DNA from: Escherichia coli | Lineage (GTDB): Bacteria; Pseudomonadota; Gammaproteobacteria; Enterobacterales; Enterobacteriaceae | NCBI RefSeq assembly: GCF_003018235.1 | Contig: NZ_CP027437.1 | Length of the DNA stretch: 64,000 bases | Reading direction: 5' to 3' (one strand) | In this document: positions 55,289 to 57,052 of the stretch, piece after piece | Layout of the letters: every line of letters begins with the position of its first letter | Numbering within the stretch: position 1 is the stretch's first letter | Made by a program: the position numbers and the translations under genes | The notes under the pieces: model-generated | Told to the model about the DNA's origin: nothing | Seen by the model: the letters and a program-made list of their open reading frames with translations, nothing else | The model's database searches: none

Positions 55289-55302
55289 CGTCCTGTGATT
55301 GT

Positions 55303-55331
55303 GCCGGATGCGATGTAATCATCTATCCGGC
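55303..55331. repeat. REP-like palindrome between convergent cysE and trmL
   Basis: GCCGGAT ... ATCCGGC inverted repeat. Confidence 0.35.
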
Positions 55332-55340
55332 ATACAGTAA

Positions 55341-55814
55341 CTAATCTCTCAATACCGCTCCCGGATACCCCAGCTGCCGCCAGGCTTCATACACCACGAC
55401 CGACACCGCATTGGACAGGTTCATGCTGCGGCTGTCCGGCACCATTGGAATGCGAATTTTTTGTTCAGCGGGCAGGGCATCAAGAATGCTTGCTGGCAGG
55501 CCGCGCGTTTCCGGGCCGAACATCAGATAATCGCCATCCTGATAGCTTACGGCGCTGTGAGCAGGCGTACCTTTCGTGGTGAGGGCAAACAGGCGCTGGG
55601 GATTTTCTGCTTCGAGGAACGCGCGATAGTCATGATGACGCGTAACGGCGGTAAACTCGTGATAGTCCAGCCCCGCGCGGCGCAGGCGCTTATCGTCCCA
55701 GGCAAATCCCATTGGTTCGATGATATGCAGACGAAAGGCGGTATTAGCGCAAAGACGGATGATGTTGCCAGTATTTGGCGGAATTTCTGGTTCGTAAAGT
55801 ACGATGTTTAGCAT
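55341..55814 (-). CDS. trmL: tRNA (cytidine/uridine-2'-O-)-methyltransferase TrmL
   Basis: 157 aa SPOUT methyltransferase [21 protein letters not shown]. Confidence 0.9.
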
Positions 55815-55816
55815 AC

Positions 55817-55839
55817 TGCCCCCTTAGTGCGGGGGCAGA
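55817..55839 (-). promoter_or_regulatory. GC-rich hairpin overlapping the trmL Shine-Dalgarno region
   Basis: CTGCCCCC-TTAGTGC-GGGGGCAG perfect 8-bp stem ending 2 nt before trmL ATG. Confidence 0.35.
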
Positions 55840-55861
55840 ATAGCAGATATTAATCTAACCC

Positions 55862-57052
55862 TTAAGCTGCATTCCCTTTCGCCATCGGAGCCAGTGCCGC
55901 AGGCAACTCTTTACCCAGCCCCTGCACCAGCGAATCTTGCGTAATTTCGCTAATCGATTTCGCGCCAGTCAGCGTCATTGCCACTTTCATCTCTTTTTCG
56001 ATCAGATTCAGCAGGTTAGCTACACCCGCCTGGCCCGCTGTTGCCAGCGCATACAGGAAAGCACGACCCAGCAGTACGGTGTCGGCACCGAGCGCAATCA
56101 TACGCACGACATCAAGCCCGTTACGAATCCCGCTATCCGCCAGAATGGCGATATCACCTTTCACTGCATCTGCAATAGCGGGCAACGCACGAGCAGAAGA
56201 GAGTACGCCGTCCAGCTGGCGGCCACCGTGGTTAGAAACCACAATCCCATCAGCACCAAAACGTACTGCATCGCGCGCATCTTCCGGATCGAGGATCCCT
56301 TTGATCACCATCGGGCCATCCCAGAAATCGCGGATCCACTCAAGGTCTTTCCATGAGATGGATGGATCGAAGTTATTCCCCAACCAGCCGATGTAATCTT
56401 CCAGTCCGGTCGGTTTGCCGAGGTAAGCCGAGATATTACCTAAATCATGTGGACGACCGTTCAGGCCCACATCCCACGCCCATTGCGGATGCGTCACCGC
56501 CTGCAAGTAACGGCGCATTGCCGCATTTGGGCCGCTCATACCAGAATGCGCATCACGATAACGCGCGCCCGGTGTTGGCATATCCACGGTGAAAACCAGC
56601 GTCGAACAACCCGCTGCTTTTGCTCGCTCCAGCGCGTTACGCATAAAGCCGCGATCGCGCAGCACATAAAGCTGGAACCACATCGGACGTTTAATGGCTG
56701 GAGCGACTTCTTCAATCGGGCAAACGGAAACCGTCGAGAGAGTAAACGGAATGCCATGCGCATCCGCCGCTTTGGCAGCCTGAACTTCGCCACGACGCGC
56801 ATACATGCCACACAAACCCACCGGAGCCAGCGCCACCGGCATCGACAATTTCTCATTAAACAGCGTCGTTTCCAGGCTTAAGTCAGACATGTTTTTCAGA
56901 ATACGCTGGCGCAGCGCCACTTCTGACAAATCTTCCACGTTGCGGCGCAGCGTGTATTCAGAATATGCACCCCCATCCATATAGTGGAACAGGAACGGCG
57001 GCAGAATGCGTTGTGCTGCGGCGCGATAATCGCTGGCTGCGGAAATAATCAT
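55862..57052 (-). CDS. lldD: L-lactate dehydrogenase (FMN-dependent)
   Basis: 396 aa. Confidence 0.95.

Follow-up and report, generated by a model that had tools for sequence, protein, structure and literature searches.

A promoter-containing hairpin that masks the Shine–Dalgarno sequence of trmL may insulate this gene from upstream transcription in Enterobacterales

Introduction

In two tRNA-Leu species, TrmL (YibK) makes the 2′-O-methyl modification at the wobble position, and a link between TrmL and RpoS translation has been reported (PMC5485728). Among the papers that we searched, none describes how the level of TrmL is set. We analysed a 64,000-nt stretch of Escherichia coli DNA (contig NZ_CP027437.1 of assembly GCF_003018235.1; hereafter the window), in which trmL stands a short distance downstream of lldD and its likely ribosome-binding site (RBS) is folded into a hairpin just before the start codon. 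A reading made from the letters alone (the sequence-only reading) had proposed that this hairpin could make translation of trmL dependent on read-through or coupling from lldD, or on RNA processing. Hence the question raised by this locus is on which transcripts ribosomes can reach the trmL start, and what role the hairpin plays in that choice.

Results

According to the ORF list, the window carries secB, gpsA and cysE on the plus strand and lldP, lldR, lldD and trmL/yibK on the minus strand, with lldD as the co-directional gene directly upstream of trmL. The trmL product matches the NCBIfam TrmL equivalog over residues 1–157 of 157 (357 bits). The interval 55815–55861 is the whole 47-nt lldD–trmL spacer, and the hairpin itself takes up only 55816–55838. 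The genes and hairpin elements are as follows.

55862–57052, minus strand: lldD, L-lactate dehydrogenase (ORF list; NCBIfam LldD match, 824 bits)
55864–55862, minus strand: UAA stop codon of lldD (sequence)
55831–55838, minus strand: hairpin 5′ arm CUGCCCCC, found solely on RNA begun upstream (folding; covariation)
55824–55830, minus strand: loop GCACUAA, 7 nt (sequence)
55819–55825, minus strand: Shine–Dalgarno (SD) sequence AAGGGGG, five G's within the 3′ arm (sequence)
55816–55823, minus strand: hairpin 3′ arm GGGGGCAG (folding)
55341–55814, minus strand: trmL (yibK) coding sequence, 157 aa, AUG at 55814–55812 (ORF list)
55294–55322, no strand assigned: REP-like palindrome with the sequence GCCGGATGCGATGTAATCATCTATCCGGC, flanked by the convergent stop codons of trmL and cysE (sequence)

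On the minus-strand RNA, the UAA of lldD is followed by GGGUUAGAUUAAUAUCUGCUAUU, CUGCCCCC, GCACUAA, GGGGGCAG, a single U (55815) and the AUG (55814–55812). The stem comprises eight perfect pairs, seven G-C and one U-A, and terminates 1 nt before the AUG, where the sequence-only reading had counted 2 nt. The perfect 8-bp GC-rich stem which that reading reported was confirmed by sequence, folding and conservation, and the SD is where it was placed, with the G-run of AAGGGGG inside the 3′ arm. Folding of the junction, proposed there as a check, returned the hairpin in both MFE and centroid structures in 76-nt and 201-nt contexts, and the hairpin region alone has a predicted folding energy of −17.8 kcal/mol. 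Perfect 8-bp GC-rich hairpins with loops of 3–9 nt gave 14 matches (about 10 loci) in the 64-kb window and 1.4 ± 1.5 in dinucleotide shuffles of it; thus, such a hairpin in a given 47-nt spacer is unexpected by chance. With Rfam covariance models, no family was found over the hairpin at E ≤ 10 and none over the K-12 spacer. The element is also not a REP/BIME or dispersed repeat: in 5417 of 5426 complete E. coli genomes its 56-nt core occupies a single place, and it does not resemble the REP at 55294–55322 in sequence.

The length of the lldD–trmL spacer is polymorphic in E. coli, being 47 nt in the window strain and in JKHS006 and 72, 153, 185 or 197 nt elsewhere. K-12 has the 197-nt form, and insertions of GC-rich palindromic repeats account for the added length. 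In all E. coli spacer forms examined, the proximal string TCTGCTAT(C/T)CTGCCCCCGCACTAAGGGGGCAGTATG is constant. Because the core stays constant while spacer length varies, the hairpin belongs to the 5′ side of trmL and not to the 3′ end of lldD. Ribosome coupling from lldD is unlikely on grounds of distance, since the lldD stop codon is 23 nt before the stem in the window and the same hairpin follows spacers of 72–197 nt in other E. coli strains.

Some further features of these spacers were recorded. In the long forms (loci L081–L086), the repeats CCCTCTCCCTCAGGGAGAGGG ... GGGTGAGGGG build an imperfect hairpin of about 130 nt (z = −4.4), and they resemble Box C-type repeats. Enterobacter asburiae, Pseudocitrobacter, Kluyvera and Pluralibacter have similar repeats at this position, and the window has no copy. 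The C-terminus of lldD and its stop codon also differ between spacer forms (GCAGCTTAA versus GCGGCATAG).

Loci around TrmL relatives were collected from 80 species, and hairpin analyses were performed on 53 Enterobacterales. The upstream gene is lldD in Escherichia, several Enterobacter and Kosakonia, and an MFS aromatic-acid transporter gene in Citrobacter and Lelliottia. It is cpxA (equivalog, 794 bits) in Erwinia, Pantoea, Serratia, Hafnia, Edwardsiella, Rahnella, Budvicia, Cedecea and others, and the cpxA–trmL spacers are only 35–100 nt long. Nearly all loci have an upstream gene co-directional with trmL. Outside the Escherichia/Citrobacter group, cpxA precedes trmL in most Enterobacterales (L012, L016, L019 and L025–L054), and cpxRA–trmL therefore looks like the ancestral order. 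The cpxA/trmL junction appears to be a recurrent insertion site, occupied by lldPRD, the MFS transporter gene, ada (Yersinia) or relB/yafQ (Photorhabdus). In Morganellaceae, O-antigen clusters have been described at this junction (PMC8649690).

A hairpin lies between the −10 element described below and the AUG in all 53 species, with predicted energies from about −9 to −24.5 kcal/mol. Among the fetched loci, the module was absent in Pasteurellaceae, Xenorhabdus, Moellerella and Rheinheimera. In the Pasteurellaceae loci (L056–L058, L061, L066 and L072), trmL starts 8–9 nt after the stop codon of a co-directional 193-aa ORF, an operon-type arrangement with neither hairpin nor −10 motif and in contrast to the module of Enterobacterales. 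Hairpin strength may follow the orientation of the upstream gene. In Yersinia artesiana and Y. thracica, where ada lies on the opposite strand between cpxA and trmL, the hairpin is the weakest of all (−9.4 kcal/mol) and the predicted cost of opening the RBS differs by 2.3 kcal/mol between read-through RNA and RNA from trmL's own start, whereas in Y. nurmii, where cpxA immediately precedes trmL, a 7-bp stem is retained and the difference is 9.2. This is suggestive, but the cases are few and the relation is contradicted by Photorhabdus, in which a strong hairpin is kept despite opposite-strand relB/yafQ directly upstream.

Adjoining the hairpin and overlapping its 5′ arm is a conserved extended −10 promoter, TGcTATTCT, with the following parts.

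55844–55845, minus strand: TG of the extended −10, positions −15/−14 (T55845 G55844), at least 90% conserved in the 53-species alignment
55837–55842, minus strand: −10 hexamer TATTCT (species alignment; in Salmonella an identical hexamer precedes the TSS by 7 nt)
55831–55836, minus strand: GC-rich discriminator GCCCCC, forming the 5′ arm's core and serving as anti-SD (sequence; Salmonella promoter string ...TATTCTGCCCCCG(+1))

The final two bases of the −10 element (C55838 and U55837) are the opening two bases of the hairpin 5′ arm. T−12, A−11 and T−7 are invariant in 53 of 53 Enterobacterales species and form the sole invariant upstream columns, and positions −10 to −8 vary, giving TATTCT, TATCCT, TATGCT, TATAAT (Hafnia), TATACT (Edwardsiella) and TAATCT (Photorhabdus). 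Judged from the alignment, conservation of this kind marks a sigma-70 extended −10 element by its information pattern, and not an RNA motif. Discriminators in other species read GCGCCCC or GCGGCCC. The −35 of trmL is poor (TTAAGG, 3/6), and a generic sigma-70 −35/−10 scan called no promoter on the trmL strand, as is to be expected where an extended −10 is combined with a −35 of this kind. As for variation within the species, the window has the −10 TATTCT as in Salmonella, and the strains that were examined directly, K-12 included, have TATCCT; at least 99% identity to the 56-nt core was found in only 29 of 5417 E. coli records.

The transcription start site (TSS) has been mapped in Salmonella. 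In the dRNA-seq data of Ramachandran et al. 2014 (PMC3963941, Table S7 row 717), yibK of strain SL1344 has a primary TSS at 3910889 and a CDS at 3910906, and the promoter string from −50 to +1 is CTGAACGCCTGGCGCGTGAGAGCCCGGTAAATTTCTGCTATTCTGCCCCCG, ending ...TTTCTGCTATTCTGCCCCCG. The metagenomic contig L087 carries exactly this Salmonella promoter string and continues with CATTTAAGGGGGCATCATG, giving a leader of 17 nt. The Salmonella +1 is the G directly after CTGCCCCC, that is, the opening base of the loop, 7 nt past TATTCT. For K-12, the ChIP-chip data of Cho et al. 2014 contain an RNA polymerase region, RNAP_1741, at 3778902–3779252 and a sigma-70 region, SigD_1475, at 3779239–3779438; the trmL ATG falls at 3779238 if U00096.2 numbering is assumed, and the resolution of ChIP-chip is hundreds of bp. 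Genomic SELEX placed RNAP holoenzyme peaks in the lldD>yibK spacer. From the identical sequence and the ChIP-chip region, we infer that the +1 of E. coli trmL is G55830, with a leader of 16 nt. Neither trmL nor yibK is listed in the supplements searched for Kim 2012, Mendoza-Vargas 2009, Ramachandran 2012 and Yan 2018, and Shimada 2014 does not mention the lldD–trmL locus.

These data bear on the dependence of trmL on its neighbour. If trmL had no effective promoter of its own, its SD would always be masked and translation would need coupling from lldD or processing; such an arrangement agrees with the masking of the SD on any RNA that has both arms and with the blank generic scan. Against it, in addition to the distances given above, stand the primary Salmonella TSS at the opening loop base of an identical sequence, the conservation of TGnTAnnnT, the RNAP and sigma-70 ChIP regions at the site in K-12, and an upstream gene other than lldD in most genera, so that we regard it as very improbable. 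Thus, the part of the sequence-only reading concerning an SD-masking hairpin stood, and the proposed dependence on lldD read-through, coupling or processing did not, in view of the conserved promoter and the Salmonella TSS within the hairpin. That reading had also named a trmL promoter mapped downstream of the stem as evidence that would speak against it, and the Salmonella start comes close to this, being located downstream of the 5′ arm only.

A second concern is whether the two arms pair by design. The C-rich discriminator faces the G-rich SD, and there are independent compositional reasons for both arms, which would allow an incidental complementarity without any selected hairpin function. 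In a plain MAFFT alignment, the 3′ arms were out of register; hence, a −10-anchored, helix-registered alignment was built, and an alignment-free swap test was added. In the swap test, the native mean was −16.0 kcal/mol as compared with −13.45 ± 0.31 kcal/mol when the 3′ halves were permuted, and 0 of 2000 permutations reached the native value; this test needs no alignment, and the relatedness of the species inflates its significance. Chimeras that join a 5′ half to the 3′ half of another species still reach −13.4 kcal/mol, and the complementarity of the arms is therefore partly compositional. The alignment used for pair counts (53 sequences) was fitted on predicted helices and is biased toward structure; in it, 70% of cells were pairing versus 61% after shuffling (0/500), and the covariation score was 0.224 versus 0.114 shuffled (0/500), with slid registers at or below 0.12, about half the score or less.

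Compensatory changes were also seen outside the core of C-run and G-run. One stem pair is G-C in 25 sequences and C-G in 19; at the adjacent pair, C-G occurs in 35 and G-C in 8. The arms are clade-specific (CUGCCCCC/GGGGGCAG, GCGCCCCC/GGGGGCGC, GCGGCCCUUG/UGAGGGCCGC, GCGUCCCUCU/AGGGGGACGC and GGCUCUCG/CGGGAGCC), with pairings such as GUCCC/GGGAC and GGCUCUC/GGGAGCC, and Pantoea sp. IMH has a 12-bp stem. With these changes, and with native pairing better than in every permutation, an incidental origin seems improbable to us.

Moreover, in 40 of 53 species the sense strand folds more stably than its complement and G-U pairs are frequent, which speaks for a structure in sense RNA rather than for an antisense transcript or a DNA palindrome. 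As the inverted repeat reaches from about −8 to +16 around the start, a classic position for a repressor, it could be read as a DNA operator for a dimeric repressor over the trmL start. However, its arms change between clades and yet stay complementary, their spacing varies from 3 to 10 nt, and both the common G-U (G-T) pairs and the strand bias just given are against it, leaving an operator hardly credible. Covariation and sense-strand stability together indicate that the predicted hairpin is a selected RNA structure. The loop is variable: loop length (3–10 nt across species) and sequence change freely, which excludes a conserved loop motif. A mimic of the tRNA-Leu anticodon loop, through which TrmL might regulate itself, was considered for the 7-nt loop of E. 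coli and was rejected for the same free variation.

The position of the start within the hairpin has a direct structural consequence. Since the 5′ arm lies upstream of trmL's own start, the hairpin can form only on read-through RNA; with transcription from the own promoter predicted to begin at the opening loop nucleotide, that mRNA would have no 5′ arm, and its SD would be free. In the window, the predicted cost of opening the RBS (−13 to +3) is 13.6–14.4 kcal/mol on read-through RNA and about 4–6 kcal/mol on RNA from G55830, so that the two differ by 8–10 kcal/mol. Over the 53 species, the mean predicted costs are 15.8 for read-through and 6.7 for the own start, a mean difference of 9.1 kcal/mol. 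In addition, a minus-strand scan of the window found no terminator-like site between lldD and trmL.

Discussion

We propose that trmL is translationally insulated from upstream operons by a promoter-inside-hairpin module. TGcTATTCT-GCCCCC-G would act as a sigma-70 extended −10 promoter, with transcription starting at G55830, the opening nucleotide of the loop. The resulting mRNA would have a 16-nt leader, GCACUAAGGGGGCAGU, without the 5′ arm, and with the SD AAGGGGG accessible TrmL would be made. Read-through RNA from the upstream gene, the existence of which is assumed here, would carry CUGCCCCC, pair it with GGGGGCAG and bury the SD. According to the folding model, read-through transcripts would thus be translationally silent for trmL, and TrmL output would be set by its own promoter only, independent of lactate, envelope stress or the upstream operon. 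On the evidence of sequence, predicted folds, species comparison and a single orthologous TSS map, we hold this insulation to be somewhat more probable than an even chance. The module accompanies trmL behind lldD, cpxA and the MFS transporter gene alike, which supports insulation. On the other side, the C-rich discriminator and the G-rich SD are each under constraints of their own, and in many species outside Enterobacteriaceae a C stands 7 nt after the −10, making their start sites uncertain.

A further function may concern the upstream operon. The main job of the hairpin could be to form the 3′ end of that operon, as a weak or non-canonical terminator or as an exonuclease barrier that would protect lldPRD or cpxRA mRNA after Rho termination or processing, and the masking of the SD would then be a by-product. 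Where spacers are 35–47 nt, this is the sole hairpin between the upstream stop codon and trmL, and in 6 of 53 species (Serratia grimesii, S. plymuthica, some Pantoea and Tatumella) at least five U's occur in the 8 nt after the stem. The opening 78 nt of trmL mRNA (55737–55814, minus strand) contain 24 C and 11 G, a C/G ratio of 2.18 compared with a mean of 0.8 in lldD; this ratio is compatible with Rho loading, and by its composition the C-rich, G-poor start of trmL resembles a Rho utilisation region. However, 47 of 53 species have no U-tract, the window included. A canonical intrinsic terminator was rejected for the window, where the tail reads UAUGCUAA, with 3 U of 8, and the minus-strand scan called no terminator. 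A pure 3′-end element would need neither inclusion of the SD nor contact with the −10 in every lineage, and K-12-type strains keep the hairpin unchanged despite the large extra palindrome upstream. As the main role, a 3′-end function therefore appears unlikely to us, though less so than the alternatives weighed above, and it is plausible that it coexists with insulation as a companion function. In the insulation model, such a companion would arise as a likely corollary: untranslated C-rich trmL RNA would invite Rho termination, and the hairpin would cap the 3′ end of the upstream mRNA.

Mechanisms of this class are known from mobile elements. In IS10 and IS50, transcripts entering from outside fold so as to mask the RBS, and the own promoter starts inside the structure, yielding RNA that has no 5′ arm and is translated. 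This fold-back inhibition of IS10/Tn10 and IS50/Tn5 was reportedly worked out by Davis, Simons and Kleckner in 1985, Krebs and Reznikoff in 1986 and Schulz and Reznikoff in 1991. The arrangement at trmL is alike in having an upstream arm complementary to the RBS and an own start inside the structure, and by analogy a similar translational effect might be expected. Unlike the transposase genes, trmL encodes a conserved housekeeping tRNA methyltransferase, its 5′ arm doubles as the end of the −10 element and the GC-rich discriminator, and no antisense RNA partner is evident.

A related design is found in phage T4. Early read-through RNA of the e (lysozyme), soc, 49 and I-TevI genes masks the RBS, and a promoter within the hairpin yields short transcripts with a free RBS. 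These cases are said to go back to McPheeters et al. in 1986, Macdonald et al. in 1984, Barth et al. in 1988 and Gott et al. in 1988. The trmL locus shares with them an RBS hairpin on long transcripts and a promoter within the hairpin region. In T4, however, the arrangement serves temporal early/late control with a late sigma factor, whereas at trmL both transcript classes would depend on the host sigma-70 and the purpose would be insulation from neighbours.

Other systems share elements with trmL. The 5′-UTR stem-loop of IS200 tnpA buries a near-perfect SD, AAGGGGG(U), and blocks 30S binding (Ellis et al. 2015, PMC4513863). That SD (AAGGGGGU) is nearly the same as the SD of trmL and both are buried in a stem, but the IS200 stem is part of the gene's own mRNA and gives constitutive repression, whereas the mapped start of trmL is inside the hairpin. 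Standing right behind a gene, the GC-rich 8-bp stem and its short loop are also like an intrinsic terminator, from which the trmL hairpin differs by having no U-tract.

The insulation model leaves the own promoter as the point where TrmL level would be regulated. Promoters of the rrnB P1 type have a GC-rich discriminator and are subject to stringent and growth-rate control. The trmL promoter is similar in that a −10 element is followed by GC(G/C)CCCC, with a poor or absent −35 and an extended −10; the likeness can be seen by comparing Hafnia trmL, TATAATGCGCCCCC, with rrnB P1, TATAATGCGCCACC. Hence, the GC-rich discriminator suggests, as far as sequence can, that the trmL promoter is under growth-rate or stringent control. 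The Salmonella yibK TSS is among the early-stationary TSSs that are absent in late stationary phase (PMC3963941, Table S7). Its presence in early but not in late stationary phase fits such control and is only a hint of it.

Taken further, trmL may be a portable, self-insulating cassette, in which the extended −10, the discriminator/anti-SD and the SD are joined in one 40-nt module, kept by compensatory evolution across Enterobacterales because the cpxA/trmL junction recurrently takes foreign operons, toxin–antitoxin modules among them. We regard this extension as a real possibility that falls somewhat short of an even chance. If it is true, trmL would be, to our knowledge, the first case of an IS10/T4-type read-through block at a housekeeping gene, and the module might also provide a Rho-dependent end for the operon upstream. 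Our full-text literature searches found no description of the promoter arrangement of trmL/yibK or of a hairpin at the lldD–trmL or cpxA–trmL junction. The class of mechanism is known, and its use at a conserved housekeeping gene appears undescribed.

If the insulation model holds, a core gene would keep a fixed, growth-linked level despite inducible operons and an insertion hot spot upstream, and RNA-seq read-through counts over trmL would not report its protein output. Similar insulators could then be searched for by a simple signature, a −10 element in contact with the 5′ arm of a hairpin that includes the SD.

Two observations concern the trmL gene body and its 3′ side. On the plus strand, a terminator-like match lies antisense within trmL at 55765–55781 (TTGCCAGTATTTGGCGG then AATTTCTGGT) and is kept in K-12; it is a consensus match only, of a kind no commoner than in shuffles. 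At the other end of the gene, trmL transcripts probably end at the REP-like palindrome at 55294–55322, a region that gives a weak naRNA4/REP-type Rfam match at 55297–55332 (23.8 bits, below threshold).
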